A stretch of 64,000 nucleotides of DNA from an uncultured delta proteobacterium (lineage in GTDB: Bacteria > Desulfobacterota > Syntrophia > Syntrophales > Fen-1087). The translations under genes were made by a program, and so were the position numbers. A model generated the notes under the pieces. The model was not told the origin of the DNA. It did no database searches and worked only from the letters and a program-made list of their open reading frames with translations. The stretch spans positions 167,680 to 231,679 of the forward strand of contig CAVUOQ010000003.1 of the NCBI GenBank assembly GCA_963743175.1. The letters run 5' to 3'. Shown here piece by piece: positions 2,582 to 61,146 of the stretch. Each line of letters opens with the position of its first letter. The stretch's first letter is position 1.

Positions 2582-3289
2582 TTATCGAGCTGAGCCTCGT
2601 CCAATGGGACGAATGGCCTTTATCCCAAAAAAAGGTCTTATTTTTTCCATCACCCTTTCCCGCCGGCTTTTTTCCGCAATGTAGACGGACCTGAGGCAGT
2701 CGACAGCATCCTCAATCTCCTTATTGATAATAACATAATCATACCACATAACCTCCCGGATTTCATCTATGGCTTTTCCAAGCCGCTTTTGCATGACTTC
2801 CTGGATCTCTCCCCGTCTGTTCAATCTGGATTTCAAATCCTCCAGAGATGGGGGAAGGATATAGACAAAGACACCACCCGGATAATTCTTTTTCAGGACC
2901 TTTGCTCCTTCGGGTTCGACGTCCAGGAGCAGGTCGCAGCCGGCGGTAAGAAGATTCTGCATGATTTCCTTGGCCGTTCCGTAATAGTGCCCGTAATTTT
3001 CAGCCCATTCAGCAAACGCCCCTTTTTGGATCTGCTCCCGAAAGGCCTCCTCAGAGATAAAAAAATAATCCACACCGTTTTTTTCACCAGGGCGGGGCGG
3101 CCTGGTCGTCGAGGAAACGGAAAACCGGATATCCGGGCACAGCTTGAGGAATTCACGGCAAATGGATGTCTTTCCCGTCCCCGACGGCGCCGAAACCACC
3201 ATGAACAGGGCGGCCTCTACGGGATCCGGTTGCTGTTTTCCAGATTTATTCAAGATTCTGCACCTGTTCCCTGAGTTTTGCCAGTTCAC
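2582..3289 (-). CDS. gmk: guanylate kinase
   Basis: P-loop SAPSGTGKTS, STTRPPRPGE..GVDYFF, typical Gmk. Start uncertain (3289 or Met at 3202). Confidence 0.9.
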   Translation of the reverse strand: MNWQNSGNRCRILNKSGKQQPDPVEAALFMVVSAPSGTGKTSICREFLKLCPDIRFSVSSTTRPPRPGEKNGVDYFFISEEAFREQIQKGAFAEWAENYGHYYGTAKEIMQNLLTAGCDLLLDVEPEGAKVLKKNYPGGVFVYILPPSLEDLKSRLNRRGEIQEVMQKRLGKAIDEIREVMWYDYVIINKEIEDAVDCLRSVYIAEKSRRERVMEKIRPFFGIKAIRPIGRGSAR

Positions 3290-8967: not shown

Positions 8968-10304
8968 TAGACTGCACCGTTCATATCGTCAGCCTCGGAT
9001 GCCCGAAAAATAAAGTGGATGCTGAGGTGATGGCCGCCATCCTGGCCGGCCAGAATTTCCAAATCACCCCGGAGCCGCAGGCCGCCGAGGTGATCCTGAT
9101 CAACACCTGTGCCTTTATCCTCCCCGCCAAAGAAGAGGCCATTGACGAGATCCTCCGCATGGCCCGGTATAAAAAAACGGGCGGCCTGAAATATCTGGTG
9201 GTAACGGGCTGCCTCCCCCAGCGTTACGGCAGAGCCCTGGAAAAAGAAATCCCGGAAGTGGACCTTTTCCTTGGAATATCCGAAATACCTAATATCACTA
9301 AGTATATATTTAATTTAGCATCCGGTCCGTCGATGCGTTGCCGCAGCATTATCAGTAAACCCGATTTTCTCATGAACGCAGAGCATTCCCGCCTGCTGCC
9401 CCCCTCCACAGCGACAACCTACCTGAAGATCGCCGACGGATGCTCCAATCGATGCGCCTACTGCATTATTCCGACCATTCGAGGAAAGGCGCGCAGCAGA
9501 CATCCAGATGACATCCTTCAGGAGGCGTCCGGTCTGGCTGAAAAAGGCGTCAAGGAGATCATCCTGATTGCTCAGGATACCACGGCTTATGGACGGGACC
9601 TGAAAATCAGACAGGGGCTCGCCCTGCTGTTGCAGAAACTTGCGGCCATTGAAAAAATCAGATGGATCCGGCTGCTCTATACCCATCCCAGCCATCTTAC
9701 AGAGGATGTCCTCACGCTGATGGCCGCAGAGGAAAAGGTTTGCCGGTATCTCGACATCCCCGTCCAGCACATCGATGACACCCTTCTGAAGGCCATGAAC
9801 CGCCGGACCAGCAGCAAGCAGATCTTTGCCGTGATTGAAAAAGCAAGGGCGCTCGTCCCGGATGTGGCCCTGCGGACTTCTCTCATGACGGGTTTCCCCG
9901 GGGAAACAAACGTCCGCTTTCATCGCCTCGTGGATCTCATCCGGAATATTCGTTTTGATCATCTCGGGGTTTTCACCTATTCGAGGGAAGAGGGAACGGC
10001 GGCCGCCGGTTTGTCCAGCCGAATTTCGGAAAGAGAAAAACTGAGACGCAGAAATCTGCTCATGGAGGAACAGTCCGTCGTCTCTCTTCAAATCAACCAA
10101 TCCCTGATCGGTTCCCGGCAGGAATGCATCATCGAAGGAAAAAGTGATCGGCCGGATTATCCTTTCTATGGCCGCTGCCGCCGTCAATCCCCGGAGATCG
10201 ACGGCATGACTTACTTCAGGGGTAAAAATTTAACCATTGGCGAAATTCTGACCTGCATCATCACCGACGCCGCAGAATACGACCTTTTCGGGGAAATCGT
10301 GTGA
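8964..10304 (+). CDS. rimO: ribosomal protein S12 methylthiotransferase RimO (radical SAM)
   Basis: SLGCPKN, INTCAF, radical-SAM CSNRCAYC, C-terminal TRAM. GTG start overlapping the ftsK stop. Confidence 0.85.
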   Translation: MIDCTVHIVSLGCPKNKVDAEVMAAILAGQNFQITPEPQAAEVILINTCAFILPAKEEAIDEILRMARYKKTGGLKYLVVTGCLPQRYGRALEKEIPEVDLFLGISEIPNITKYIFNLASGPSMRCRSIISKPDFLMNAEHSRLLPPSTATTYLKIADGCSNRCAYCIIPTIRGKARSRHPDDILQEASGLAEKGVKEIILIAQDTTAYGRDLKIRQGLALLLQKLAAIEKIRWIRLLYTHPSHLTEDVLTLMAAEEKVCRYLDIPVQHIDDTLLKAMNRRTSSKQIFAVIEKARALVPDVALRTSLMTGFPGETNVRFHRLVDLIRNIRFDHLGVFTYSREEGTAAAGLSSRISEREKLRRRNLLMEEQSVVSLQINQSLIGSRQECIIEGKSDRPDYPFYGRCRRQSPEIDGMTYFRGKNLTIGEILTCIITDAAEYDLFGEIV

Positions 10305-10335
10305 CGACTTCGCTTCACGCAGTCGTCATTCATAA

Positions 10336-10496
10336 CGAACACGTAAAAAGTTAAAAAATGAGCCGAAAGCGACGGCTGCGTAAAAAGCTTCGCAGGCAAG
10401 GCGCGCAAATCATGAGGGATGAGGCATACTTTTACGTACGCCTCAATGACGGAGGATGCAGCGCAACGCAGCATCCAGACTTTTTACACAGCCGTC
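10336..10496 (+). repeat. family-A MITE-like structured repeat, copy 1 (TSD ATTCATAA at 10328-10335 and 10497-10504)
   Basis: Alignable by eye to copies at 12413, 39652 and 50421. Internal GACGGCTGCGTAAAAAG pairs with terminal CTTTTTACACAGCCGTC. Abuts the acd stop codon. Confidence 0.85.
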
Positions 10497-11745
10497 ATTC
10501 ATAAATGATTTCGTCCGCTGCATGGGCTTCCTCGGCGTCAGCCTCAAAGTCGCGGGCAAGCCCTCTGGCCTTGGCCTTCAGGAATTCCCGGTACCACTCA
10601 TGGGCCACGATCATGGACATGACCTCGCTCGTGCCCGTCCAGATGGTGGCCAGGCGGATATCCCGGAAAATGCGCTCAACGGGGAAAACATTGGTGTAGC
10701 CGATTCCGCCGAGTACCTGCATCGCATTGTGCACCACTTTCTGGCAGGATTCGGTGATGAACTTCTTGGATTCGGAAACCATGCGTCGCACCCGGTTCAT
10801 CTCCACCCCGGCATCCACGGCGCGGGCCGTGGCGTAGCCCAGGGCGCGGGCAGCATCCAGCAGCATGACCGCCTCGGCCACCTGAAAGCTCACGCCCTCA
10901 AACCGGGCAATCACCTGGCCGAAGGCCTTGCGCCGGGAGGTGTAGCTTGTGGCAATTTCCAGTGCCGGACGGGCAGCGCCGATGGTCATTATTGCCGTTC
11001 CCAAGCGTTCCGGAATCATCATGGTGTTGAAAACATCATAAGCCCCATTGACCCGCCCCAACACATTCTCGCGGGGAACCTTGACATCCTTGAAGACCAA
11101 CCGGGCCGTTCCACCGCCCCGGCAACCCATGAGTCCATAGAGGTACTTCGTTTCAACCCCCGGTCCCCGATCCACGATAAACGCCGTAATGGATTCCTGC
11201 GGGTTCGCATCCGGTGCGAAATTGGTCCTGGCATAAAGCAGAAAATAATCCGCCCCTTCGCCGCCCACGATAAACCGCTTCTGGCCGTTGATCAGGAAAT
11301 AATCGCCATGATCTTCAGCCTTCGTGGCGGCGCCGAAAAAGTCCGATCCGCCGCGAGGTTCCGTCAGACACTCCGCCGCAAAGAGATCGCCGCGCAACAA
11401 CGGCTTGACATATTTTTCCTTCTGCTCGTCCGTCCCGTGTTGAACGATGGCATCACAGACCAGCTCCGCTCCGACGCCGAAGACGCAGGCCATTTCATAC
11501 CCCAGCGTGCCCACCTCCTCCATGACCACGCCGGTGGTCACCCAGTCCATGCCGCGGCCGCCCCATGCTTCCGGATAACGGCAGCCCATGAGATTGCGCC
11601 GGCCCGCTTCCCGGAGAAATTCCTTGGGAAACTTGATCTTGTCCGCGTCCATATCGAGGATCATCTGTTTCGGCACCCATTTGACAAGATCCCGCACCTC
11701 GTCCCTGATTTTGAGTTGTTCCTTTGTCAGCATGTAATCAAACAT
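10495..11745 (-). CDS. acyl-CoA dehydrogenase family protein
   Basis: ORF 10495..11778; ..AECLTEPRGGSD..INGQKRFI..GGIGYT.. ACAD fold pattern. Start probably the third Met (11745), 6 nt after AAAGGAG. Confidence 0.85.
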   Translation of the reverse strand: MFDYMLTKEQLKIRDEVRDLVKWVPKQMILDMDADKIKFPKEFLREAGRRNLMGCRYPEAWGGRGMDWVTTGVVMEEVGTLGYEMACVFGVGAELVCDAIVQHGTDEQKEKYVKPLLRGDLFAAECLTEPRGGSDFFGAATKAEDHGDYFLINGQKRFIVGGEGADYFLLYARTNFAPDANPQESITAFIVDRGPGVETKYLYGLMGCRGGGTARLVFKDVKVPRENVLGRVNGAYDVFNTMMIPERLGTAIMTIGAARPALEIATSYTSRRKAFGQVIARFEGVSFQVAEAVMLLDAARALGYATARAVDAGVEMNRVRRMVSESKKFITESCQKVVHNAMQVLGGIGYTNVFPVERIFRDIRLATIWTGTSEVMSMIVAHEWYREFLKAKARGLARDFEADAEEAHAADEIIYE

Positions 11746-11774
11746 ATCCATCTCCTTTACTTTTAGAAATCTTT

Positions 11775-11928
11775 GCATAACCGCTGAAAAATGGTTCGCA
11801 AGCGGCGAATCAAATGTTTTCCGCCTTTCCAGAGATCACGTTAGCGGCTTGCCATGAATCATGATGACGTCTGGTCGTCCTCTTAGCGGAAAAGATTTTT
11901 GAACCGCGGCGAAGCTATTTTTCAAAGG
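11775..11928 (+). repeat. family-B interspersed repeat, copy 1
   Basis: About 85-90% identical to 19413-19565 and to the reverse complements of 49611-49764 and 60959-61110. Its end CCTTTGA (gene sense) contains the TGA of the CYTH gene. Confidence 0.85.
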
Positions 11929-12410
11929 ATTTTCATCTCCGGTGACCATCGTCCATAGGGGTGATTCACCAGATTCATGTTCCAGTACTTCGGATCGAGA
12001 GAGACTTCCCGGCCCACCCATTCGGGAAGCTCAATGGCCTGACGCTCTTGTGTCAGCTCCACCTCGGCAACCACCAATCCTTCGTTTTCTCCTGTAAATT
12101 CATCTATTTCCCAGCTCATGCCCTTGAAATCAAGGACGTATCTTATTTTTTCAATAAATGGCCTCAGGCAGACCCGTTCAAGCAAATCCTTCGCCTCGTC
12201 CACCGGCAGCGGGTATTCATATTCCGGGCAGGAAAGGCCCGTTTTCCGACCTTTGATGGTCAGAGTGGCCTTCTCTCCCGCTACCCGTACACGAACGACA
12301 CGATCATGAGAAGCAACGAGGTATCCCTGCCGGCAGAAGGTCCCCCGGTCGCCCTTTCGCCAGCCATCGCCGCTCACCAAAAACTTCCTTTCGACTTCAT
12401 TGTCCGTCAT
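11922..12410 (-). CDS. CYTH domain protein (triphosphate tunnel metalloenzyme family)
   Basis: MTDNEVERKFLV start (EXEXK motif), ..RVRV..TLTIKG.., ..EIDEF.G.N.GLVVAEVEL... The 5' part of ORF 11922..12608 is repeat-derived and excluded. Confidence 0.8.
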   Translation of the reverse strand: MTDNEVERKFLVSGDGWRKGDRGTFCRQGYLVASHDRVVRVRVAGEKATLTIKGRKTGLSCPEYEYPLPVDEAKDLLERVCLRPFIEKIRYVLDFKGMSWEIDEFTGENEGLVVAEVELTQERQAIELPEWVGREVSLDPKYWNMNLVNHPYGRWSPEMKIL

Positions 12411-12412
12411 AA

Positions 12413-12574
12413 CGCCCTCGTAAAACGTCAAAAAATACGCCGAAAATGACGGCTTCGTAAAAAGCTCCGCAGGCAAGGCGCGCAAATCAAGAGGAGCGAG
12501 GCGTACTTTGTGCGTACGCCGTAGTGACGAAGGATGCAGCGCAACGCAGCATCCGGACTTTTTACGAAGCCGTC
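12413..12574 (+). repeat. family-A repeat, copy 2 (flanked by CGTCATAA 12405-12412 / TGTCATAA 12575-12582)
   Basis: GACGGCTTCGTAAAAAG ... CTTTTTACGAAGCCGTC is a perfect 17-bp inverted pair. Inner hairpins GGCGTAC/GTACGCC and GGATGCAGCG/CGCAGCATCC. Confidence 0.9.
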
Positions 12575-12576
12575 TG

Positions 12577-13167
12577 TCATAACGCCTCGATAACGGACCA
12601 CAGGACATCCTTTCCTTCGCCCGTCTTGGCTGAAAAGAGAACAGGACCGGTTGCGGTTTTCAAATCTGCCCCTTTGATCAGCATCTCTTCGATCTGACGG
12701 GCACGGAACCACACCTGGCTTTTTGAAAGCTTATCTATTTTCGTCAGGACCAGCAGGACCGGAATACGGCAATCGTTGAGCCACTGCAGGAGGTCCAGAT
12801 CATGCGCAGCAGGATCCCTCCGGATATCCATGATCAGAATGACGAGACGCAAGTTGGATCTTTCTTTCAGATAGGTTTCCACCATGGGACCCCAGTTTCG
12901 CCGGACCGCTTCGGGAACCCGTGCAAAACCGTATCCGGGAAGATCAACAAAAGCATAGCGATGATTGATGAGGAAAAAATTGATAAGCTGCGTGCGGCCG
13001 GGCGTATTGCTTGTCTTGGCAAGATTTTTCCGACGGACAAGCGCGTTGATGAGTGAAGACTTGCCCACGTTGGATCGGCCCACAAAGGCCACCTCGGGAA
13101 GGACGCCTTCGGGATAGTGTGACGGTTCGGTGGCGCTCTTGATGAATTCTGCAGACAGGATTTTCAT
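12577..13167 (-). CDS. engB: ribosome biogenesis GTP-binding protein EngB/YsxC
   Basis: GRSNVGKSSLINAL, NTPGRTQ, DLPGYG, TKIDK G-motifs; 196 aa. Confidence 0.9.
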   Translation of the reverse strand: MKILSAEFIKSATEPSHYPEGVLPEVAFVGRSNVGKSSLINALVRRKNLAKTSNTPGRTQLINFFLINHRYAFVDLPGYGFARVPEAVRRNWGPMVETYLKERSNLRLVILIMDIRRDPAAHDLDLLQWLNDCRIPVLLVLTKIDKLSKSQVWFRARQIEEMLIKGADLKTATGPVLFSAKTGEGKDVLWSVIEAL

Positions 13168-14624: not shown

Positions 14625-16871
14625 TTATCCTTCCTGATTAAGCGGGAATGTCACCATCACCCGGGTTCCTTCTGCTTTTTTGCTGCTGACTTCGATGCTT
14701 CCCCTGTGAAGATCAATGATCTTCTTGACCTGCGTCATCCCCAGGCCGGTTCCATATTTTTTCTTGGTGAAGAAGGGATTAAAAATATGGGGCATATCCG
14801 ACGCCTCGATCCCGCAGCCGTTATCTTCAACCGTGATTTGAAGCTGTGCCGGATCATTTCCCGTTCGCCGGGCCGTGGTTCGCAGGATGCCGTCCATCTC
14901 CATGGAATCCACGGCGTTCCGGTAAATGTTCAGAAAGGCCTGCTCCAGCATCGCTGAATCCACCTGCAGAAAAGGAAGCGAATCTTCAATCTCGGTGTGA
15001 ATGCGGATGTTCTTGTCCGTGACCAGTCTTTCCACCAGAGCCAGGGCATTCTCAACAATTCTTCGAATATCGGAGGGTTCCTTTTTGGGAACGGCGGGCT
15101 TGGCGTATATGAGCACGTCATTGACGAGCTCCCCCAGGTGTTCCACTTCCCGCTGAGCGATCCGGAAGCGCTTGAGATCATTTCCCTCGGGCTGCATGCG
15201 CTTTTCCAGAATCTGGAGGCTCATCTTGATGGATGACAGAGGGTTGCGCACCTCATGCGCGATCCCGGCTGACAACTGGCCGATGGCCGCCAGTTTTTCA
15301 CTCTCATAGAATTTTTTTTCAAGATCTTTGAACTCCGTTATATCTCGCTGGACAAAAACATAACGGCCGGTTCCCTCAATGGGCCGGGGAGTGATCAGCA
15401 GGCTTCTTTTCGACCCGTCTTTTTCCGTGGCTTCGATTTCAAACGGCTGATAGATTCCTTTTTTCACATCCTCCCAGACCGCCAGGGCCAATGTCCGATG
15501 TTCGGGGGCCACGAATTCCGTAAAAGGCTTCCCTTTGCTTTCTCTGAAAATGAAACCCTTTCCTTTTTGGAGATTACCGCTGATATAGTTGATGATGCCG
15601 TCGCTGCTGAGGTCAAACAGGGTGTCCGGCGAGCTGTCCACGATCGACCGCAGGTAATTATAGACCCCTTCAATCTCCTGCCTGAGTCGGACATTCTCCG
15701 AAAGTTCGTTCTGCAGGGTTTCGGCATACTCCTTGAGATTCGCGGCCATCTCCTCTTCCCGGCTCACGTCCTGAAGCGTTTCTATGGCCGCAATGATCGC
15801 CCCCTTCTCATCACGGATCGGCGCCGCCAGGAAATAGAGATACCGGCTCCGTCCGCCGAGCTTTTTATAATAATCCCTGGCCTCGTAGGCGCCTTCGACA
15901 ACGGCTGATTTCTGCACGCGCTTCTTGCCGTAATATTTTTCCAGTCCCTCGATATCATCATCCACGATCAGATCGGCAATGACCGGGCGTTTTTCCGGAT
16001 AAAAGGGCGCGTATTGTTTGTCCGTACCGATCATTTCTCCGGCCTGATACCCCACAAGTTCGGCGCAGGCTTTGTTCCAGAGCATGATACGGTGGTCTCT
16101 GCCGATGACAAACGTGGGGATCGGCGATCCCTCAATGACGCCCTCGATGGTCTTAATCAGCCGAATGTTTTTATCCAGTTCGCTCTTGAGGGTCTCCGTA
16201 TATCGCTTCAAATCATTTTCCAGTTCCGTTTGCCGCGTAACATCCTGGAGCGTTTCAATCGCAGCGCTGATCTCCCCTTTTTTATCGTAAATCGGCGCCG
16301 CCAGAAAATAAAGGTGCCGCCTGACCCCGCTGCGATTTTCGAAAAAATCGCTGGCATCGTAGGCTCCTTCAATCATTTTGGATTTTTGCACCCGCTTTTT
16401 GCCGTAATACTTTTCCAGTCCTTCGATATCGTTGTCCACAATCAGATCAGCAATAACCGGACGTTTCTCTTGATAAAAAGGTAAATATTGCTTGTCCGTG
16501 CCGATCATCTCCACCGCGTCATAACCCATGAGATCGGCGCAAGCCTTGTTCCAGAACATGATTTTGTGATCCCTGCCGATCACGAACGTCGGAATCGGCG
16601 ATCCCTCGATGATGCCCTCAATGGTACTCTTTTCACGGAAAAGCTTGTCCTGCCAGTTTTCACTCTCCCGGAAACGCCTCCACTCCCGGTTGATGCGGAT
16701 CTGCCGCCAACCCGCGTACGCGAGCGACAGGCTGGCAACGACCACCGCTAATACCAGCGCATCACGTTCCGCAATGTTCCTGTCATGGGAATGCGTGACA
16801 GTCAGGACGGCCAAAAGGATCAGGACGACGATCGATAATAACATCAACCAGGTGGAAGCCCTCATGCACAA
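14625..16871 (-). CDS. membrane PAS-domain sensor histidine kinase (2 TM, two tandem special PAS-like modules, one ordinary PAS, HisKA, HATPase)
   Basis: H-box SAGIAHEVRNPL; N/G boxes NAVDSM..DNGCGI..GTGLG. Two near-identical about 150-aa repeats IEG.IEGSPIPTFVIGRDH.IM.WNKACA.. Directly upstream of the NtrC-type gene. Confidence 0.9.
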   Translation of the reverse strand: MCMRASTWLMLLSIVVLILLAVLTVTHSHDRNIAERDALVLAVVVASLSLAYAGWRQIRINREWRRFRESENWQDKLFREKSTIEGIIEGSPIPTFVIGRDHKIMFWNKACADLMGYDAVEMIGTDKQYLPFYQEKRPVIADLIVDNDIEGLEKYYGKKRVQKSKMIEGAYDASDFFENRSGVRRHLYFLAAPIYDKKGEISAAIETLQDVTRQTELENDLKRYTETLKSELDKNIRLIKTIEGVIEGSPIPTFVIGRDHRIMLWNKACAELVGYQAGEMIGTDKQYAPFYPEKRPVIADLIVDDDIEGLEKYYGKKRVQKSAVVEGAYEARDYYKKLGGRSRYLYFLAAPIRDEKGAIIAAIETLQDVSREEEMAANLKEYAETLQNELSENVRLRQEIEGVYNYLRSIVDSSPDTLFDLSSDGIINYISGNLQKGKGFIFRESKGKPFTEFVAPEHRTLALAVWEDVKKGIYQPFEIEATEKDGSKRSLLITPRPIEGTGRYVFVQRDITEFKDLEKKFYESEKLAAIGQLSAGIAHEVRNPLSSIKMSLQILEKRMQPEGNDLKRFRIAQREVEHLGELVNDVLIYAKPAVPKKEPSDIRRIVENALALVERLVTDKNIRIHTEIEDSLPFLQVDSAMLEQAFLNIYRNAVDSMEMDGILRTTARRTGNDPAQLQITVEDNGCGIEASDMPHIFNPFFTKKKYGTGLGMTQVKKIIDLHRGSIEVSSKKAEGTRVMVTFPLNQEG

Positions 16872-19358: not shown

Positions 19359-19412
19359 ATTCCATCGACCTGCCTATCCACCCCAGCCTATCCTTCACGA
19401 AACGAGAACTTT

Positions 19413-19565
19413 GTATAACCGATGAGAAATGGTTTGCAAGCGGCGAATCAAATTTTTCCGCCTTGCGAGAGATGACGTTAACGGTTTGCCGGATATCGTG
19501 ATTATGTCTGGTCGTCCTCTTGGAGGAAAAGATATTTGAACTGCGGCGAAGCCATTTTCCAAAGG
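19413..19565 (+). repeat. family-B interspersed repeat, copy 2
   Basis: GTATAACCGATGAGAAATGGTTTGCAAGCGGCGAATCAAA...GCGGCGAAGCCATTTTCCAAAGG, aligned to copy 1. Confidence 0.85.
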
Positions 19566-38251: not shown

Positions 38252-39636
38252 TCAACCCACCATGACCTGCTCTTCAGCGTAGGTGAGTCCCCGCTTCGGC
38301 GCACTCCAGGCAAAAGCCAGCGTCAGGGGACCGACCCGCCCGGCGAACATCATGAGAATAATGGCGAGTTTCTGCATATCATTGAGGTTTGCCGTAATGC
38401 CCATGGACAGGCCCACGGTTCCAAAAGCCGATACGGTTTCAAAAAGGTATTCCACAAAAAAATGGCGGCTCTGTGTGGGATGCGGCGTTTCGGCATGGCC
38501 GCCTGCAAAACAGAAGGATCGACGTAATCAGACAGATCGAAAAGGCCGATGCGAAAACGATGGCCATGGTCCTGCCGAGAATTTCCTTCGGGATGGTCCG
38601 GTTGAACATGTTGACTTCGTCCTGGCCCTTGATCCGATTCCAGATCATGACAAGGAGGAGTGCGAAACTGGTCGTCTTGATGCCGCCGCCGGTCGAGTCC
38701 GGGCGATGCTCCGATGAACATGAGGATGATCAGAACGAGGATGGTCGCATTGGTCAGTTGACCATGTCCACGGTATTGAAACCGGCAGGTCCGCGGCCGC
38801 AACGGACTGAAAGAAGGAGGTCAGAATCTGCGTTTCACGGACGCTCCCTAGCAGAATGTGATTCATTTCAAAAAGGTAAAACAGCAAAGCCCCTGCCGAT
38901 GATCAGAATACGCGGTCATCACCAGGACAACCCTGCTGTGGATGGACAGTTTCTTTTGTAATCCCCGGAATCTCGCGAAAACTTCATATTGAACAATAAA
39001 GCCGATCCCCCCGAGAATAATGAGTCTCATGATAGTCAGGTTGACGACCACAGTCAGCCTGATAGCTCATGAGATTATCGGCAAAGAGGGAATAACCGCA
39101 GTTGTTGAAGGCGGAGACAGCGTGATAGAGGGCCTGATAAAGAGGCATGCGCCATGGGGAAATCATGAGAAAAACGGACAAACAAGCAGCAACGTACCCA
39201 TGCCTTCGATGAGAAATGTGGACAAGAAGGACCCATTTGGCAATGACGACGAAAATCCCGCCGCGGCGTATGCAGGAATGCTGGATTGCACGATTTCCCG
39301 TTCTTTGAAGGAAACCCCGCGGCCCATCATCCCGAAGAACACGACGGAAAAGGTGACAATCCCCAGACCGCCGATCTGAAATAGAAAAAGACTGATGACC
39401 TGTCCGGTGAAAGACAGATCCGTGCCGATGTCAATCGTGACCAGACCGGTGACGCACACCGCCGAGGCCGACGTGAACAGGGCATCCACAAAAGTGAGCT
39501 GTCCCCGGCCGGCGGAAAAGGGCAGCCATAGCAGGAACGCCCCCGCCAGAATCACAGCGGCAAAACTGAAAATGAAAATCCGTCCAGGTGGGAGTTGTCT
39601 GGCGACAAAAGTGCGGAGATGAACCGGAATATTCAT
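38252..39636 (-). pseudogene. trkH: TrkH/KtrB potassium transporter gene broken by at least 9 frameshifts
   Basis: The homologous pieces lie in different frames. These are MNIPVHL..DALFTSASAVCVTGL..QIGGLGIVTF (F0), GGIFVVIAKWVLLV (F2), AVSAFNNCGYSL (F1), VNLTIMRLIILGGIGF (F0), LFYLFEMN..FFQSV (F1), AGFNTVDMV (F2), LTNATILVLIILMFIGASPG (F0), STGGGIKTTSFALLLVMIW (F2) and ETVSAFGTVGLSMGIT (F1). The length of 1385 nt is not a multiple of 3. Confidence 0.85.
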
Positions 39637-39651
39637 GGCTATGATCCCTTG

Positions 39652-39812
39652 ACGAATTCGTAAAAAATCAAGATACTATCCAAATTCGACGGCTTCGTAA
39701 AAAGCTCCGCAGGCAAGGCGCGTAAATCCTGAGGAGTGAGGCGTACTTTAGGTACGCCGCAATGACGAAGGATGCAGCGCAACGCAGCATCCGGACTTTT
39801 TACGAAGTCGTC
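39652..39812 (+). repeat. family-A repeat, copy 3 (TSD ATCCCTTG at 39644-39651 and 39813-39820)
   Basis: Left TIR (G)ACGAATTCGTAAAAAA, internal GACGGCTTCGTAAAAAG and right CTTTTTACGAAGTCGTC. Its terminal GA completes the lspA TGA. Confidence 0.9.
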
Positions 39813-40311
39813 ATCCCTTGGAGTCGGTCTGGCTTTCCTTGCCGCGTCTCGTGAGTTCGATAAACAGGATGACCGCACCCACGGAAATGGCCGAGTCGGC
39901 CACATTGAAGGCCGGCCAGTGGGTGGAGCCGATGTAAACATCCAGAAAGTCAATCACTTCCCCTAAACGAACCCGGTCGATCAGATTTCCGACGGCGCCG
40001 GATAGAATCAGCGAGAGGGCAAACGTCAGAAACGGCTCCTTCGCCTTGCTTTTCCAGATATAATGCACGACCAAGATGATCGCCAGGACCGTAACGGCCG
40101 CGAAAAAGATGGAACGGAACAGCGGCGAGGCGTCGGCCAGAAAACCGAAGGCCGCTCCAGGATTGCGGACATAGGTGATGCTGAACAATCCCTGAATGAC
40201 GGGGATGGATTCATGCAGCCGCATCGATGAATCGACATAAAACTTGGTGATCTGATCAAGAAGGAGAATCAGGCCGGTCGTCACGCCAAGCAGGAGGACC
40301 TTTTTATTCAA
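39811..40311 (-). CDS. lspA: lipoprotein signal peptidase (signal peptidase II)
   Basis: ..RNPGAAFG.., ..GAVGNLIDR...G.VIDF.., ..WPAFNVADS.I..G; classic ileS-lspA pair. Confidence 0.9.
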   Translation of the reverse strand: MNKKVLLLGVTTGLILLLDQITKFYVDSSMRLHESIPVIQGLFSITYVRNPGAAFGFLADASPLFRSIFFAAVTVLAIILVVHYIWKSKAKEPFLTFALSLILSGAVGNLIDRVRLGEVIDFLDVYIGSTHWPAFNVADSAISVGAVILFIELTRRGKESQTDSKG

Positions 40312-43099
40312 GATTTGTCAGGCACCTTTCGCAAACCGTCGGATGTTCAGGATTCATTCCGACATTCTCGCTGTAGATCCAGCAACGATTGCACTTCTTG
40401 CCGCCGGCCTTGGAGACGCCGACTGAAAGACCCTCAACCTCGGCGCTCTGATAGGCCTCCGGAATCTGATCCTTCGGCACGAGACTGACCTGCGACACGA
40501 TCAGCAGCGCCCGGAGATCCTCGATGTGCGTATCCAGAAGAGACCGGAGTTGTTCCGGCGGACAAACCGCAACGGCGGCATCCAGGGGATGCCCCACCAC
40601 CTTGTTTTTCCTCGCGATTTCAATGGCCTTGGAAATCTCACCTTTGACGGCAATGAGGGTCTTCCAGCGTTCTGACAAATCAGGATTCAGGAAAGCTTCA
40701 TTGACCGCCGGGAATTGGGTCAGATGGACGCTCGCCTCTTTACCGGCATAAGCCGGCAGGGCTGCCCAGACCTCTTCGGCGGTAAAGGTCAGCATCGGCG
40801 CCAGCAGCCGGGTCATGGCCTCGAGGATGAGATACATGGCCCTCTGGGCGGAGCGTCGTGCCTTTGAGGCCGCCTTGGCCGTATAGAGGCGGTCTTTGAG
40901 GACATCCAGATAAAGGGCGCTCAGATCAACGGTGCAGAAATTGTAAAGGGTGTAGTAGACGACATGAAACTGATAACTGTCATAGGCTTCGCGGACACGC
41001 TTGATCACCTCCTGCAGCCGGTGCAGGGCCCAACGATCAATCTCTTCCATGTCTTCGGACGCCACCGCATCCCGCTGACAATCAAAATCATAGAGATTCC
41101 CCAGAATGTAACGGCTGGTATTGCGGATCCGGCGGTAGGCCTCCACGAGGCGTTTGAGGATCTCATCGGAAATTCGGATATCCTCGGTGTAATCTTCCGC
41201 GGCCACCCAGAGCCGCAGGATTTCCGCCCCGTACTGCTCAATGATCTCCTGCGAATCGATGACATTGCCCACGGATTTGGACATCTTCTTGCCCTCGCCG
41301 TCCACGACAAAACCGTGCGTGAGAACACTCTTGTAAGGCGCCCGGCTGCGCGTTCCCACGGACTCCAGCAGGGATGAATGGAACCAGCCGCGATGCTGAT
41401 CGGACCCTTCCAGATACAGATCCGCACGGCGACCGGTGATCGGGCCAGTTTTCCAGAACGGCGGCGTGGCTCACGCCGGAATCAAACCACACATCCAGAA
41501 TATTCGTCTCCTTCGTAAATCGTATCATGCCGCAATGCGGACAGAGCGTTCCGGCCGGCATCAGGTCCCGCGGCTCCCTTTCAAACCACACGTCGGCACC
41601 GTACTGCCGGACCAGCGCCACGATATGATCCATCATGGCCTGGGTCATCAGCTCCCGGCCGCATTGCCCGCAGTAGAAGATGGTGATCGGAACGCCCCAG
41701 AGCCGCTGGCGCGAGATGCACCAGTCGGGACGGTTTTCCACCATACCGTAGATCCGGTCGCGTCCCCAGGCGGGAATCCACTTGACCTCTTCGATCGCCC
41801 GCAGGGCGTTTTTTCGCAGATCGTTTTTTTCCATGGAGATGAACCACTGCTCCGTGGAGCGGAAAATAATCGGCTGCTTGCAGCGCCAGCAGTGGGGATA
41901 GGAATGCTCCATCTCCACAAGGCCCATCAATGCTCCGATTTCTTTCAATTTTTTGTTGATCGTGTCATTGGCGTCAAAGACGAACTGTCCGGCAAACTCC
42001 TCAACATCGGGTGTAAACTTGCCGTCGTCGTCCACGGGGGCGTAATTGTCCAGGCCGTACTTCATGCCGATTTCATAGTCCTCCTGGCCATGCCCCGGAG
42101 CGATATGCACGCAGCCGGTACCGGCCTCCAGCGTGACAAAGGGGGCCAGAATCAGCACACTCTCGCGGTCGACCAGCGGATGGCGGCATTTGAGCCCCTC
42201 CAGGACTGCACCTGTGAATTCATCTATGATTTCATATTGTTTTCCGCGATAGCCGAAGGCGTCAAGACAGTAATCGAGCATGTCTTTGGCGAGAATCAAC
42301 ACCTCTGATTCCACTTCGACCGCCGCGTAGATGAAGTCCTTATGGACGGCAATCGCCAGGTTTGCCGGGATCGTCCAGGGCGTCGTCGTCCAGATCACGA
42401 CATTGACTTTTTTACCGGCCAGTTTCGGGCGGATGGCCGCAATATCGGAAATGATGGGAAATTTGACATAAATGGACGGCGTCTGGTGGTCCGCATATTC
42501 CACTTCCGCTTCCGCCAGGGCCGTTTTGCAGGAGGCGCACCAGTAAACGGGCTTTTTCCCCTTATAGACGCTGCCGTTAAGGAAGAGCTTCCCGAATTCG
42601 GCCACGGTAGCCGCCTCATAATCATAGGTCATCGTCAGATAGGGATTCTCCCATTCGCCGAAGACGCCCAGGCGCTTGAATTGCTCCCGCTGGATATCCA
42701 CATATTTTTCTGCATAGATGCGGCAGAAGCGGCGCTTTTCCGTCTGGGACAGGTCGTTCTTCTTCTCGCCCAGTTCCTTGTCCACCTGATGTTCGATGGG
42801 CAGGCCGTGGCAGTCCCAGCCGGGCACATAAACGCTGTCAAAGCCCGTCATGTTCTTGGCTTTGATCACCATATCCTTGAGAATCTTATTGAGCGCCGTC
42901 CCCAGATGGATGTTGCCGTTGGCATAGGGGGGGCCGTCGTGCAGGATGTAAGCTCTCGCGGCCCTTTGAAACCTCCCGGATTTTATCGATACATGTCGAT
43001 CTCCTCCCACATTTTGAGCATCTCCGGCTCCTTCTTGGCGAGATTGGCTTTCATGGGAAAATCGGTTTTCGGAAGATTCAAGGTGTCTTTGTAGTCCAT
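40304..43099 (-). pseudogene. ileS: isoleucine--tRNA ligase; reading frame as sequenced is broken by three 1-nt insertions
   Basis: True start is [20 protein letters not shown] (ATG 43099). The frames run F1 -> F0 ([10 protein letters not shown]) -> F2 ([16 protein letters not shown]..) -> F1 ([21 protein letters not shown]-terminal Zn finger). The extra bases are at about 42985, about 42954 and 41426. 2796 nt overall. Confidence 0.9.
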
Positions 43100-43165
43100 G
43101 GACGCTCCTTAACATTTGTTTACGGATTTGGCAGAGCTACCACAGAGAAGGCACACTTTCAAGAT

Positions 43166-45549: not shown

Positions 45550-46896
45550 TCAATGGCGGCGATGGACCAGCGACGTGACGACGCCTTCGAGGTGGTGCAG
45601 GGTGTTGCATTCCTTCACTGTACTGCAGAAGGGGATGTATTTTTTCATTTCCGAATCCCCCGTCCCCCAGAAGGACGGCGTCTCCGGGTTCAGCCAGATC
45701 AGCCGTTTGCTGCGCTCATAGATCGCCTTGAGGATGCCTGTCTGCGCCTCCGCATAATTATTCCGCGCATCGCCCAGAATGAGCACGGTGGTCTTCCGCG
45801 AGACGCTGTCCAGGTGGTTCGCCTTGAAGTCCCGAAAGGACTGGTCGTAGTCGGTCCGGCCCATGAGAATGGGCAGGTCCGCCCCCAGGCGGATCTTCTC
45901 AACGGCCACCTCGATGGGGTATTCATCAAAAATCGACGTGATTTCAATCAGGTTTGAACAGAAGATAAACGTTCTGATCCGGACGATGGCCTTGTTCAGT
46001 CCATACAGAAACAGCAGCAGAAACCGGACCGTCCGCATGACAGACCGGCTGATATCGCAGATGACCACAAGATCGGGCCGTTCGATCTTTCGTTTTTTCC
46101 ACTTCGGATCGAAAAGGAAGCCCTGGTAGGTGATGTTCTTACGCAGGGTTTTCTTGAAGTCCAGTTGTCCCCGCCGGGAGGCCTTCCGCCGCCGCGAATG
46201 CAGGTCGTTCAACCGTTTGACCATGCGCTGGATAATGATGTGCATGTCCTGGAAATGCTGCTGTTCCAGCGTGGACAGTTTGGCATGGCGCAGATAGGAC
46301 GTCAGCAAGTTCTCCATCGCCGTGGGGGTGTTGAGGGTCAGTTGCTGCGCCACATACCGCCGGACATTGTCCACCAGAAAGGTTCTCGCTTTCTCCAACG
46401 CAGCCGTCTGCTGCGCCGCACCGGGCAACCCGGCGGCCTGCGTGGCCTGGATCTGCGCATCCAGCGTCGGCAGGCCCATCCGGTCCAAAATCCGCAGGGT
46501 ATACAGGCTCTGCTGTGTGAAAAACTGGATATCCGTGAGGTTGGCCGCCCGGGCTGCCTCCCGCATGGCCATGACAAGCGCTGTCTGGTCTCCGGAAAGC
46601 AGCGTCCGGATGAGTGAAAAGTCGGTTGCCGCCCCGACAAGCACCGGGTCAGGTTCTGCGGTTGCATTGGCATCGGCGAAGTAATCAAAGGAAAAGAAAT
46701 GATCGAAGCACCGGGCAAAAATCTCCTTTTCCGGCGCCGATTTGGGGAGCGCCGCCAGCAGCGCGTCCCGCAGGGTTTCCCGATCGTTATAACCGACAAG
46801 CCGGACGGACTGCAGAGCGTCCAGGGTTTCCGAAACGGAAATCCGGACGCCGGCGTGCCGCAGAGAAACGATAAAGTCGCTCAGGACCCGGTCCAT
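45550..46896 (-). CDS. VWA domain protein, CoxE-like
   Basis: The C-terminal half has the VWA/MIDAS-like motif VVICDISRSM.. and ..ILGDARNNY... It is partner of the upstream MoxR ATPase (2-nt gap). Confidence 0.7.
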   Translation of the reverse strand: MDRVLSDFIVSLRHAGVRISVSETLDALQSVRLVGYNDRETLRDALLAALPKSAPEKEIFARCFDHFFSFDYFADANATAEPDPVLVGAATDFSLIRTLLSGDQTALVMAMREAARAANLTDIQFFTQQSLYTLRILDRMGLPTLDAQIQATQAAGLPGAAQQTAALEKARTFLVDNVRRYVAQQLTLNTPTAMENLLTSYLRHAKLSTLEQQHFQDMHIIIQRMVKRLNDLHSRRRKASRRGQLDFKKTLRKNITYQGFLFDPKWKKRKIERPDLVVICDISRSVMRTVRFLLLFLYGLNKAIVRIRTFIFCSNLIEITSIFDEYPIEVAVEKIRLGADLPILMGRTDYDQSFRDFKANHLDSVSRKTTVLILGDARNNYAEAQTGILKAIYERSKRLIWLNPETPSFWGTGDSEMKKYIPFCSTVKECNTLHHLEGVVTSLVHRRH

Positions 46897-46898
46897 CG

Positions 46899-47849
46899 TC
46901 AGTCTCCCGCCGCCCTGACGGCGCCGGCCGTGAGCGGATGCAGGCGTTCGGTCACCACGGCGATATCCTCTTCGAATTTCAGGAATATATTGAGGGTATC
47001 CCGCACCAGATCGGGACTCAGCTCTTGGGCATGCAGAATCAGCAGGACTTTCGCCCAGTCGATGGTTTCGCTGATGGACGGCGCCTTCCGGACCTCCAGT
47101 TGTCTCACCGCCTGGATGAAGGCAACCAGTTGCCGGCCGAGCTTTTCCGAAATGCCGGGCACGCGGATGCGGATGATATTTCTTTCCAGGCCGGGTTCGG
47201 GAAAGGGAATGAAAAGGTGCAGACAGCGGCGTTTGAGCGCCTCGCTAAGCTCCCGGGTGCTGTTGCTGGTGAGAAAGACGATCGGCTTCGTGACGGCCTG
47301 AACGGTGCCGATTTCGGGAATGGAAACCTGAAAATCGGACAGGATCTCCAGCAAAAAAGCCTCGAACTCGTCATCGGCCTTGTCGATCTCATCTACGAGC
47401 AGCACGGCCCCCCCTTCCTGCTGCAAGGCCTTCAGGAGCGGCCGGGGTTCGAGAAAGTGGCGGGAAAAAAAGATGTCGTCATAGCGATGCAGCTTGTCGA
47501 TGGATTCGGCAAAACCGTTTTCCCGGTTGATGATGCTGTCCAGCTTGTCTTTCAGGAGCTGCGTATAGAGCAGTTGCTTGCCGTACTTCCACTCATAGAG
47601 CGCCTTCGATTCGTCAAGCCCCTCGTAGCACTGCAGCCGGATCAGGGGCAGGTCGAGAAAGGCCGCAGTGGTTTTTGCCAGTTCCGTTTTGCCGACGCCG
47701 GCGGGGCCTTCCACAAGCAGCGGTTTGCCCAGGTGATAGGCCAGGAAGGCCGTCGTTGTGATCTGGCGGCTGGCAATAAATCCCTGTTCCTTGAATCCTC
47801 GCCCGATGGCTTCGGGAGACGCGAATTTTTCATCGTGAATGGTCTGCAT
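46899..47849 (-). CDS. MoxR-family AAA+ ATPase (CoxD-like)
   Basis: Walker A EGPAGVGKTELAK, Walker B LLVDEIDKADDEFEAFLLE, sensor ..VFLTSNSTRELS.AL.RRC. Confidence 0.8.
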   Translation of the reverse strand: MQTIHDEKFASPEAIGRGFKEQGFIASRQITTTAFLAYHLGKPLLVEGPAGVGKTELAKTTAAFLDLPLIRLQCYEGLDESKALYEWKYGKQLLYTQLLKDKLDSIINRENGFAESIDKLHRYDDIFFSRHFLEPRPLLKALQQEGGAVLLVDEIDKADDEFEAFLLEILSDFQVSIPEIGTVQAVTKPIVFLTSNSTRELSEALKRRCLHLFIPFPEPGLERNIIRIRVPGISEKLGRQLVAFIQAVRQLEVRKAPSISETIDWAKVLLILHAQELSPDLVRDTLNIFLKFEEDIAVVTERLHPLTAGAVRAAGD

Positions 47850-48993
47850 GATTCCTATCCTGTCCTTTCTTCAGGAGAATGGTTTCTCCGATTCTCTTCT
47901 GCTTGATGAGCGCGACATGCCCCGCCACGCCGAGGGTCATGGTCAGATCCTTCGCCAGCGTCTCCCACGCCGCGTCGGGTTGTATCCCCGCTTGCTCGAT
48001 AACCTGCGCCAGGCGGGATTGAAACTGCCCGGCCAGGGAACGGAACGACAACAGGAGGGACGGGAATTCGGGATGGCGGCAGCCGCTGTCGAGCATGGAG
48101 GCGGCTTCATAGGCCAGAATTCTCAGCGCGTCGAGCCGAAACTGCAGCTCGCCGAGCGCTGTTTTCAGATCATCGGTGGGGCCGATCTCCTGTCCTGCGA
48201 TCAGGACCGGCAGGGCGGCCATCTGGACCTGCATCCCGCCTGCGACCGGACCCATGAGCATGACGTCCTCCAGGTCCCGAAAGGGTTTGGATATCCGCTC
48301 AAAAGCGTCCCCTATGTTTCCCAGCACTTGGTCGGAAGAAATCCGGCAGGCCTCAAGCCGGATGCCGCAGTGGGGAGAGGGCTTCAGAAAATCGAGCCGG
48401 AGCGGATCGGTCAGAGAAAGGCCGGGAGTCTTACGGGGGACAAGAAAAGCGGTCATTTGTTTTTTCCCGCCTTCCGTCGCCGAAACGGCGAGAACCACAA
48501 AGAGGCCGGCCAGGGGTCCGTTGGTGAGAAAGGATTTTTCACCGGTCAGGATCCAGTCCTCACCTTCGCGGAGGGCGGATGTCCGCAGATATTTTGGATG
48601 CGCCCCCGTCCCTGGCTCGGAAATCGCGAGCGACGGCGTGATTTTTCCTGCGGCCAGTCGCGGCAGCCATTGTTCGATCTGCTGGTTGGTGCCGAAACCC
48701 AGAATGGCAAATCGGCACACGATCAGATGAATGAGCCAGGACAGGGCCATGCCCAGATTATGACTCCGGCTGACAAAGGCCTCGCCGGCCGCCTGGATGG
48801 AAAGCCAGTCCCCACCCGAACCGCCGTAAGCGGCGGGAATGCCCAGACCGAGCAACCCGGCCTCTCCCATTTTCCGCCAGAGCGCAACGGGAAATGCATC
48901 GGTTCCGTTCAAACTTGAAGCCGCTTCCTTTATTACGAAGAGGTCTATCTGTTGCTGTCGCTTTTGTCGTTCTTCATCCAGATGCATCGCCAT
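47830..48993 (-). CDS. acyl-CoA dehydrogenase-like protein (divergent)
   Basis: ..LGLGIPAAYGG.., ..LAISEPGTGAHP.., ..W.LTGEKSF.TNG ACAD pattern. The C-terminal region reads LGVAGHVALIK where MCAD-type enzymes have YEGT..IQ. Confidence 0.7.
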   Translation of the reverse strand: MAMHLDEERQKRQQQIDLFVIKEAASSLNGTDAFPVALWRKMGEAGLLGLGIPAAYGGSGGDWLSIQAAGEAFVSRSHNLGMALSWLIHLIVCRFAILGFGTNQQIEQWLPRLAAGKITPSLAISEPGTGAHPKYLRTSALREGEDWILTGEKSFLTNGPLAGLFVVLAVSATEGGKKQMTAFLVPRKTPGLSLTDPLRLDFLKPSPHCGIRLEACRISSDQVLGNIGDAFERISKPFRDLEDVMLMGPVAGGMQVQMAALPVLIAGQEIGPTDDLKTALGELQFRLDALRILAYEAASMLDSGCRHPEFPSLLLSFRSLAGQFQSRLAQVIEQAGIQPDAAWETLAKDLTMTLGVAGHVALIKQKRIGETILLKKGQDRNHADHSR

Positions 48994-48995
48994 GA

Positions 48996-49517
48996 TTACT
49001 TTTCCTGTTCCTCCACAACCATCTCGTCGTCGATCCCGCCCGCTACGGCTGGAGACAAAGGCGCGGACGGCTGATTTTTTACGGCTCCGTTTCGCTGAAA
49101 TTTAAGAAAAAATCCGTTGAGTACCCGCTTGAATGCCTCTATTTCCTCTTCGGAAAATCCAGTCTTGATTTCTTCATTGACGCGGCGAATAACTGCCTTG
49201 GCCCCGTCCACCTCGGCAAAGCCCTGCGGCGTAATATGGATATGAGAAGTGCGGCGGTCCCCTGGATTGGCGTGCCGCTTGAGAAAGCCGGCTTTCTCAA
49301 GGCGGTCCGTAAGCCCTGTCATGGTCGAGTTGTCGATGCCGAGGATTTGGCTCAGTTCCGTCATTGTGCGACCGTCTTTCTGTTTCAGCAGGAACAGGAT
49401 CCCCGCCTGGGCGGCGGTAACCCGGACACCGGACGCCGCGAGGGCGCTGTTGAGATACATTTTCAATTTCTGCTGAGCTGAAAAAACGAGAAAAATCAAA
49501 CGGTCATCGGTGATCAT
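48996..49517 (-). CDS. MarR family transcriptional regulator
   Basis: ..VTAAQAGILFLL....GRTMTELSQILGIDNSTMTGLTDRLEKAGFLKR..NPGDRR winged HTH. Start at MITDD (49517) within ORF 48996..49640. Confidence 0.85.
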   Translation of the reverse strand: MITDDRLIFLVFSAQQKLKMYLNSALAASGVRVTAAQAGILFLLKQKDGRTMTELSQILGIDNSTMTGLTDRLEKAGFLKRHANPGDRRTSHIHITPQGFAEVDGAKAVIRRVNEEIKTGFSEEEIEAFKRVLNGFFLKFQRNGAVKNQPSAPLSPAVAGGIDDEMVVEEQEK

Positions 49518-49541
49518 CGGCCTGCCCTTTTTGAAGTGTTC

Positions 49542-49580
49542 GGTATGCGTATATTTTGCATACCAAATATATCTTGTCAA
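49542..49580 (-). promoter_or_regulatory. putative marR-operon promoter (TTGACA -35) with overlapping palindrome GGTATGC-N9-GCATACC (candidate MarR operator)
   Basis: Minus strand TTGACA at 49580-49575, -10-like CAAAAT about 16 nt downstream, and a perfect 7-bp inverted repeat at 49542-49548/49558-49564. Confidence 0.4.
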
Positions 49581-49610
49581 GAATTTTATTGATGGTTTGG
49601 AGATGAGAGA

Positions 49611-49764
49611 CCTTTGAGAAATGGATTCGCCGCGTCTCAAAAATCTTTTCCGCTAAGAGGATAACCAGACGTAATCATGATTCATGATAAGCCGTTAACG
49701 TCATCTCTGGAAAGGCGGAAAATATTTGATTCGCCGCTCGCGAACCATTTCTCAGCGGTTATGC
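49611..49764 (-). repeat. family-B interspersed repeat, copy 3 (inverted relative to copies 1-2)
   Basis: CCTTTGAGAAATGGATTCGCCGCG...GATTCGCCGCTCGCGAACCATTTCTCAGCGGTTATGC. Confidence 0.85.
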
Positions 49765-49786
49765 AAAACTTTCAACGAATGTTGTC

Positions 49787-50401: not shown

Positions 50402-50420
50402 CCGGCAACCCTCCTGTTAA

Positions 50421-50584
50421 ATTCACATAAAATCAAGAAATGAGCCGAATACGACGGCTTCGTAAAAAGCTCCGCAGGCAAGGCACGCAAGCCCCCTCCC
50501 CGAGGAAAGCGGCATACCTGGCAGTATGCCGCTTTGACGAAGGATGCAGCGCAACGAAGCATCCGGACTTTTTACGAGGCCATC
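50421..50584 (+). repeat. family-A repeat, copy 4 (most divergent; no clear TSD)
   Basis: GACGGCTTCGTAAAAAG...GCGGCATAC-ctggca-GTATGCCGC...CTTTTTACGAGGCCATC. Its terminal GA completes the pit TGA. Confidence 0.85.
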
Positions 50585-52203: not shown

Positions 52204-52411
52204 CCTCCAATAAAACGTCTACATTGAAGCGGGGTTTTGCCATCCCTTTCAAGGGATGGCAAAATCTTTGCGCGCCCTCTATCGGATTATTATGAAAATT
52301 GCAACAGGTTTTCATCCTGTCGTCAATATTGTCCCTATAATCAGCACGTAACAGTCTGTGCGCGTCGTGAACAGCTGCCCGGTCTGGTTTATTGTCTGCC
52401 CCGGTGTAAAA

Positions 52412-53464: not shown

Positions 53465-53700
53465 AGCCGATACACTCCTCTCTGTTCATTTTTATTAAAA
53501 ACCGGTCAGGGGCGGCCGAAAACGGCGTCATCTTAAACTTCTTTGGCTTTCTGTTCAACTTTTTTTATTGACAACACACACGGCATAATTGATTGACTTT
53601 TTCTCCATTGTTCATGTACGCTGCACGTGGAAACGGAAGGACCTTCAAAAGATATCAGACGCTCAACAGGATGTCAGGGTTATAAAAGGAGGGTGTATTT

Positions 53701-61110: not shown

Positions 61111-61146
61111 GAAGCACCGCTCCGTGCGTGTTTTAGAGGCAGTGAT

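Follow-up and report, generated by a model that had tools for sequence, protein, structure and literature searches.

The window analysed here is a stretch of 64,000 nucleotides (64 kb) from an uncultured delta proteobacterium of the Syntrophales (assembly GCA_963743175.1, contig CAVUOQ010000003.1, positions 167,680 to 231,679 of the forward strand). It holds four copies of a short repeat that we call family A. All four lie on the + strand in one orientation, measure 161-169 bp and are built from the same parts in the same order: an outer left repeat (L1), a spacer, an inner copy of that repeat (L2), two hairpins and a right repeat (R). Family A is very probably a non-autonomous DNA transposon, that is a MITE (from miniature inverted-repeat transposable element), of Syntrophales-type deltaproteobacteria. 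The copies, their flanking repeats and two related sites are the following.

10303..10327, + strand: palindromic remnant of 25 bp with the outer 10 nt of each terminal repeat only, GACGACTTCG-CTTCA-CGCAGTCGTC; single match, 0.01 expected
10328..10333, + strand: left target-site duplication of copy 1, ATTCAT
10334..10496, + strand: copy 1, with L1 at 10334-10350, spacer, L2 at 10371-10387, hairpin 1 at 10423-10442, hairpin 2 at 10454-10476 and R at 10480-10496
10497..10502, + strand: right target-site duplication of copy 1, ATTCAT; the acd stop codon is TCA 10495-10497
12405..12410, + strand: left duplication of copy 2, CGTCAT, identical to the right one at 5/6 positions
12411..12574, + strand: copy 2, with L1 at 12411-12427, L2 at 12448-12464, hairpin 2 at 12532-12554 and R at 12558-12574
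12575..12580, + strand: right duplication of copy 2, TGTCAT; it holds the engB stop codon (12577-12579), off the junction
39644..39650, + strand: left target-site duplication of copy 3, ATCCCTT, 7 bp
39651..39812, + strand: copy 3, with L1 at 39651-39667, L2 at 39688-39704, hairpin 2 at 39770-39792 and R at 39796-39812
39813..39819, + strand: right duplication of copy 3, ATCCCTT; the new lspA stop codon is TCA 39811-39813
47873..47880, no strand assigned: empty target site AGGAGAAT; at this place a relative (L094, 6431-6589) has a full element flanked by a duplication of these bases
50416..50584, + strand: copy 4, with a degenerate L1 at ~50416-50432, L2 at 50453-50469, hairpin 2 at 50542-50564 (1 mismatch) and R at 50568-50584

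Copy 1 lies between the convergent genes rimO (+) and acd (-). It was inserted directly behind the ...GTC end of the 25-bp piece at 10303-10327, which looks like a deletion remnant or an excision footprint and whose GA, together with a preceding T, forms the stop codon TGA of rimO (10302-10304). Copy 2 is bordered by the stop of engB on one side and by the start of a gene for a CYTH-domain protein on the other. Copy 3 sits between lspA and a trkH-like gene, where relatives have only 2 nt. Copy 4, next to the stop of pit (TCA 50583-50585), is an old copy without recognisable duplication, and its insertion is also present in the relative L094 (3686-3862). An earlier note, made from the letters of this stretch alone, had described four copies at these places, in a single orientation and with this architecture, and inspection of the sequence bore out all of it.

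With their flanks the four copies align at 81% mean column identity, and an independent repeat finder also returned them, as four-member families. The hairpin-2 sequence GGATGCAGCGCAACGCAGCATCC occurs 4 times in the window against 0.00 expected. For the 17-nt terminal repeat GACGGCTTCGTAAAAAG, 9 matches were found at 3 mismatches or fewer, against 0.10 expected; these are L2 and the reverse complement of R in every element, plus L1 of copy 3. In copy 2 both L2 and R match GACGGCTTCGTAAAAAG exactly and so are perfect 17-nt complements of each other, just as the earlier note had it. The only open reading frames (ORFs) within the elements, of 48 and 56 aa, lie on the + strand of copies 1 and 4. 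A protein-coding reading was considered and rejected: these ORFs are not conserved between copies, the ATG in the spacer is missing from copy 2 and from most other genomes, and nested inserts break the frames.

The family extends far beyond the window. A scan of a collection of species-representative genomes, with the exact hairpin-2 sequence as seed, gave at least 113 stretches (loci L001-L113). Among the matches listed, the sources are uncultured metagenome-assembled genomes (MAGs) labelled Syntrophales, Smithellaceae, Syntrophaceae or 'Desulfobacteraceae', from roughly 30 assemblies. A profile built from the four window copies found at least 118 strong matches and at least ~139 places overall in at least 113 sources. 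Many contigs start or stop inside the element, the signature of a high-copy repeat that breaks assemblies. The mobile unit has 125-165 bp, no coding capacity of its own and 17-nt ends of the form GAYGnnnTCGTAAAAAG ... CTTTTTACGAnnCRTC, and most copies carry the second, inner left repeat L2. The terminal repeat is conserved in 63 distinct copies. We found no sign that the family had already been described under another name: no Rfam family was matched at gathering score over the whole window, and none at E ≤10 over copies 1-2; none of 72,556 plasmids was matched by copy 2 in blastn; and no paper was found that links Syntrophus or Smithella with such repeats.

Derivatives are also present, namely short forms, internal deletions, nested palindromes and the 25-bp remnant, as is typical of decaying MITEs. 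Copy 4 and its positional orthologue in L094 have their flanks and left end in common (about 97% by eye), while their cores belong to different subfamilies, the core of the window copy matching L046 of a different genome. Such a pattern is suggestive of gene conversion between copies. It also qualifies a detail of the earlier note, which had taken the pair GGCATAC/GTATGCC for a compensated change of copy 4: the paired form is real, yet the change is not private to this copy but a subfamily variant that L046 has as well. The same terminal repeat (TTGACGnnTTCGTAAAAAG) is found with entirely different cores in other small non-coding elements (L022 212-290, L093 4253-4340, L040 5979, L054 7700 and L062 2239), which suggests a superfamily in which one transposase serves several MITE families.

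A separate observation concerns extra GC-rich hairpins that are nested at fixed positions of the element (L090 ~3150-3250 and L094 3686-3862, also L012, L026, L031, L032, L033, L082, L095 and L097). One of them, ATGGGGACA...TGTCCCCAT, is found in both orientations in two copies, which marks it as a separate tiny palindromic insert.

Duplication of the target was assessed by seeking the bases that follow the right end directly before the left terminal repeat in all copies with enough flank (n=92), the next 14 nt of flank serving as control. An exact flanking repeat of at least 6 nt was found in 48/92 copies, against 7/92 in the shifted control. Taking GAYG...CRTC as the limits of the element, we counted 36 copies with a duplication of 6 bp, 6 with 7 bp and 1 with 8 bp. 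The 36 copies give a symmetric target logo, gTC/AAnnTT/GAt (slashes mark the borders of the duplicated hexamer), with A in 35/36 at its first and T in 35/36 at its sixth position; outside it, G is found in 16/36 at -3, T in 21/36 at -2, G in 21/36 at +1 and A in 17/36 at +2. The earlier note had proposed target-site duplications of 8 bp at copies 1-3. Their existence is borne out family-wide; their length is not, being 6 bp and only sometimes 7-8. Copy 1 has 6 bp (ATTCAT) and copy 3 has 7 bp (ATCCCTT), and at copy 2 the repeat is imperfect (CGTCAT and TGTCAT). The extra matching bases beside the window duplications either belong to the element ends or reflect target preference. We also considered microhomology-primed duplications of variable length, in which the first bases of L1 would derive from the target, and rejected them: when each L1 is set against flanks that belong to other copies, extra identity is distributed in the same way, so that the extra matches come from target preference. 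Termini of the form TG...CA with a 4-bp duplication would be less parsimonious, since two copies with atypical end bases (L046 and L065) have the same atypical base on both sides.

The target resembles the element's own ends. This accounts for several tandem pairs that lie exactly one duplication apart, and for the position of copy 1 directly behind the 25-bp remnant.

Two empty sites settle that the element is mobile. At the lspA-trkH junction, three element-free relatives of metagenomic origin (L114, L119 and L120, with LspA 92%, 69% and 71% identical) read ...AAGGGATCATAGCCATG..., with a single AAGGGAT, and their LspA ends in KGS-TAG with the next gene starting 2 nt on; in the window AAGGGAT stands on both sides of copy 3. 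The earlier note had predicted a pre-insertion LspA ending in KGS-stop, and this is what the relatives have, the duplication being of 7 bp, not 8. The second site is seen by comparison with L094, 85-92% identical to the window over 46473-53904: a lone AGGAGAAT stands in the window at 47873-47880, and the corresponding place in L094 is occupied by a full element. The direct repeats did not, then, precede the insertions: both orthologous empty sites hold one copy of the duplicated bases.

A further property of the family concerns stop codons. The stops of acd (10495-10497), lspA (39811-39813) and pit (50583-50585) consist, on the gene strand, of a T from the flank and the terminal GA of the element. 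The earlier note had all four copies welded onto a stop at a gene's end, three of the stops being made in this way, and those three hold; the stop of engB (12577-12579) stands clear of the element by 3 nt. The element begins with GA and ends with TC, and the duplication begins with A and ends with T, so that both junctions read TGA inward and the welded stops follow from the end sequences. In the next frame, a TAA within CGTAAAAAG is met 11 nt in, and the third frame stays open. TCA/TGA is also part of the preferred target. Among long ORFs (at least 120 codons) that run into the right end, 20/60 stop at the junction TGA and 4 at the inner TAA; for those entering the left end (L1) the numbers are 6/59 and 5.

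In 6/9 cases that could be reconstructed, the stop was already at that codon in the empty site, as for acd, where the reconstructed empty site had the same TGA. In the other 3/9 the protein lost 1, 8 or 12 residues. The pattern is one of target preference for AT-rich hexamers flanked by TCA/TGA, followed by survival of the insertions that spare the protein. Where an element lands on a stop codon or immediately ahead of it, the protein is unharmed or loses only a few residues; elements in such places persist and accumulate at the 3' ends of genes and within operon junctions. The preference for gene ends that the earlier note had proposed was thus recovered in the wider sample, where copies lie within a few nt of gene 3' ends. 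Its rule that the copies share one orientation and sit at the ends of minus-strand genes, in contrast, is a property of the window only. Relative to their flanking genes, 28 copies lie in a (-,-) and 25 in a (+,+) context, with 9 convergent and 9 divergent cases.

Two genes of this region show broken frames. The ileS gene (40304-43115) is broken into two overlapping frames, the trkH-like gene that follows copy 3 downstream (38350-39636) into at least 4. These are assembly frameshift errors or pseudogenes; errors are more likely since the essential ileS is affected, and no polar effect of copy 3 can consequently be derived from them.

The consensus fold was examined on an alignment of 63 distinct L2-to-R sequences. 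It comprises a closing stem between L2 and R, hairpin 1 (GGCGTAC/GTACGCC and two extra pairs) and hairpin 2, with 97.6% of cells paired. Double changes occur at 13 pairs against 5.8±1.5 in shuffled alignments (0/500 reach 13) and at most 8 in slid-partner controls, so that the compensatory changes suspected by the earlier note exceed both controls; hairpin 2 was the seed of the scan and its covariation cannot be judged. At the terminal repeat's three variable positions, L2 and R remain complementary across some eight variants (TTC/GAA, ATC/GAT, GCG/CGC, CAT/ATG, TAT/ATA, TGC/GCA, GGC/GCC and TCC/GGA). For the closing stem of copy 1 the earlier note had reported a T>G change matched by A>C, and this pair is indeed compensated, although an adjacent C.A and an A.C in hairpin 1 are not. 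Both strands fold far better than shuffled sequences (z -5.5 and -4.2). Wobble pairs, however, are biased to one strand: read on the + strand, 118 cells are G.U against 23 A.C. The high-frequency wobbles, in 15, 27, 21 and 18 sequences, are all G.U on the + strand, and rare mismatches are about equal. We cautiously read this as a constraint on one strand in the lineages that amplify, with neutral decay of resident copies; the independent events are few.

Taken as an element, family A has what defines a MITE. It is short and non-coding, has terminal inverted repeats and target-site duplications of characteristic length, and its dispersed copies differ in presence and absence between genomes. 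The kind of element is well known and the family new, outside the sequence-defined families that we compared. The doubled left repeat, the junction stops, the stem covariation and two unexplained asymmetries are notable but modest extras. From this anatomy, a transposase supplied in trans would bind the terminal repeats and insert the element at AT-rich sites of the logo given above, duplicating 6 bp (sometimes 7-8). By analogy with Correia, ERIC and bcr1 elements, effects on the host could include cleavage of the ~17-21-bp RNA duplex, altered mRNA stability or partial termination.

Several points weigh against the MITE reading. The ~1 Mb of fetched loci yielded neither a transposase nor an autonomous element that bears these terminal repeats, in a search that covered solo terminal repeats, pairs of repeats up to 6 kb apart and adjoining ORFs. 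Around solo terminal repeats in L062, L109, L108 and L029 there were host genes or other small non-coding elements only. One pair of terminal repeats 3.2 kb apart in L009 was considered as an autonomous element; the genes inside it are ordinary metabolic ones and its match of duplications depends on the self-complementary hexamer AATATT, and we read it as a coincidence. The family of the transposase and its chemistry would have to be read from the target-site duplications and inverted repeats only. The exact hairpin-2 seed biases the sample towards well-preserved copies, and copies from different genera are unusually alike, at 84% mean column identity. Long ORFs end in a junction stop four times as often at the right (19/59) as at the left end (6/56, orthologous duplicates removed in both). 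This excess is unexplained; a simple model does not predict it, despite the symmetric logo and the balanced orientation. Finally, the core and the L2/R stem covary and the wobble is strand-biased as described above, for which a selfish element moving as double-stranded DNA by cut and paste has no obvious need.

Movement as single-stranded DNA by an HUH-type enzyme, either as a REP/BIME-like element with a RAYT or as a palindromic derivative of IS200/IS605, would meet some of these points. It would explain why the fold matters on one strand only and why G.T wobbles are tolerated strand-specifically in amplified lineages; the complementarity of L2 and R through about 8 variants of their three variable positions and the frequent landing of new copies exactly beside the ...GTC end of a resident copy would also fit. 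Y1 transposition of IS200/IS605 and REP elements by HUH enzymes, though, leaves the target unduplicated and places the insert 3' of a fixed tetra- or pentanucleotide, and family A has clear duplications of 6-8 bp, a symmetric logo, two empty sites and terminal sequences that are true inverted repeats. Nor was a RAYT, TnpA or TnpB gene seen next to any copy examined, and we regard this route as barely conceivable. The covariation by itself might have arisen without selection, through intrastrand template switching between the arms of the palindrome or gene conversion between copies. Correction of quasipalindromes is an established mutational mechanism, the arms are long perfect inverted repeats and hence its substrate, and the exchanged cores of copy 4 and its L094 orthologue, within common flanks and left end, point the same way. 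Templated correction would not yield the excess of + strand G.U over A.C, however, and it leaves unexplained why L1 has failed to be corrected towards R. We therefore hold it to be possible, if somewhat unlikely; it would in any case cover the origin of the covariation only and is compatible with a MITE, which it does not replace.

The remaining alternatives place the function of the fold in RNA or in a single strand. Family A might be a structured RNA module that the host keeps for its function, its transposon-like features being secondary; candidate roles would be those of a terminator or attenuator that moves, of a 3' structure that stabilises mRNA or is processed by RNase III, or of a small RNA. 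The covariation of the closing stem and hairpin 1, the G.U excess with every high-frequency wobble a G.U on the + strand, the very stable folds and the copies directly behind stop codons would all suit such a module, and MITEs with roles at the RNA level exist (Correia with RNase III, ERIC with RNase E, the terminator-like SPRITE, and bcr1 with its compensatory changes; PMC10969869, PMC3184786). Two sequence features would suit it as well. On the + strand hairpin 2 is followed by GGAC and then T5, the T5 belonging to the closing stem, and a terminator consensus scan did not flag it; the one site flagged inside the elements is a 5-bp hairpin with T6 on the - strand, in the spacer of copy 1. Beyond this small hairpin of copy 1, the scan lends no support to the idea of the earlier note that the element could double as a terminator. 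Promoter-like sites were found in none of the elements scanned. Copy 3, moreover, splits genes that are translationally coupled in relatives, where efficient termination would be harmful and silence the downstream gene. Orientation to genes being random (28 against 25), transcription would yield the wrong strand for half of the copies; mismatches of low frequency favour neither strand, suggesting neutral decay of resident copies; nested insertions and internal deletions are tolerated; and Rfam gave no match even at E ≤10. A host-kept module is very unlikely on this evidence. Termination at some copies is possible, and RNase III-type processing of the 17-21-bp duplex is equally plausible. A mixed alternative would have the one-strand fold, beyond the terminal repeats alone, required for propagation, through a structured single-stranded DNA or RNA intermediate that still gives 6-bp duplications, or would have a mobile RNA module retained preferentially by the host when its right end abuts a stop. 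It is unlikely as well, less so than the host-kept module; if true, it would explain why wobbles favour one strand, why L2 and R are so strictly complementary and why junction stops are in excess at the right end.

As a MITE, family A behaves in the classical bacterial manner and is most like bcr1 in size, direct repeats and compensatory changes, and like Correia in its paired terminal repeats and nearness to genes. The bcr1 element of the Bacillus cereus group is about 155 bp long and dispersed, with short direct repeats, a cruciform-like fold, compensatory changes and no transposase of its own (PMC3184786). Family A shares with it the size, the dispersal, a distribution not conserved in relatives, flanking repeats, a maintained fold and the lack of a transposase. 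It differs in sequence and host phylum and in duplicating 6 bp at AAnnTT where bcr1 has 5-bp repeats; transcription has been shown for bcr1, whereas family A is known here from its sequence. Correia elements (CREE/NEMIS) of Neisseria are MITEs of 100-160 bp with hundreds of gene-proximal copies that are present or absent between strains, and their paired repeats are cut by RNase III (PMC10969869, PMC3184786). They resemble family A in size, in long terminal inverted repeats that would pair as an RNA duplex, in their place near genes and in mobility seen as presence or absence, but they duplicate TA and have 26-bp repeats, an IHF site and promoters; family A has its 6-bp duplication and a doubled left repeat.

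ERIC/RU-1 of Enterobacteria, imperfectly palindromic and about 127 bp long, is inserted in intergenic regions that are transcribed, frequently at the 3' ends of genes, where it alters mRNA stability (PMC10969869). It, too, is a small palindromic insert often found at gene 3' ends, with a TA target, another sequence and, unlike family A, no built-in junction stops. SPRITE of Streptococcus pneumoniae, a small dispersed repeat downstream of genes, folds like a Rho-independent terminator (PMC10969869, PMC3184786) and is defined by that motif; in family A hairpin 2 stands 4 nt from T5, the T run belongs to the closing stem, and copies are randomly oriented to genes. Chunjie of Geobacter uraniireducens is a deltaproteobacterial MITE with very stable folds, of which some copies overlap genes or lie inside operons (PMC3184786). 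It is larger (178-235 bp), with 21-bp terminal repeats and 9-bp direct repeats, and was compared with family A by description only.

The element matters in practice for genomes of syntrophic, methanogenesis-linked deltaproteobacteria. Hundreds of copies break their MAG assemblies and give rise to spurious ORFs and misplaced gene ends, and a family model would improve both assembly and annotation. It is also a clean example of an element whose ends (GA...TC) and target (A...T, flanked by TC and GA) guarantee a stop at both junctions, which allows it to colonise the last codons of essential genes and tightly coupled operon junctions at almost no cost. The strand-biased wobble and the right-end bias of stops could reveal selection at the RNA or single-strand level.

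The window also contains other repeats. A second, unrelated repeat of ~150 nt, with internal inverted repeats, is present at 11753-11928 (+), 19391-19565 (+), 49619-49767 (-) and 60965-61113 (-), at 81-85% identity; at least two of them are found immediately upstream of genes on the minus strand (acd and one that is MarR-like), and the repeat has no Rfam match at gathering score. Two sets of diverged direct repeats probably reflect repeated protein domains: at 53794-55050 three copies recur every 426-429 nt (70-73%), and at 15703-16476 two copies every 474 nt (73%).

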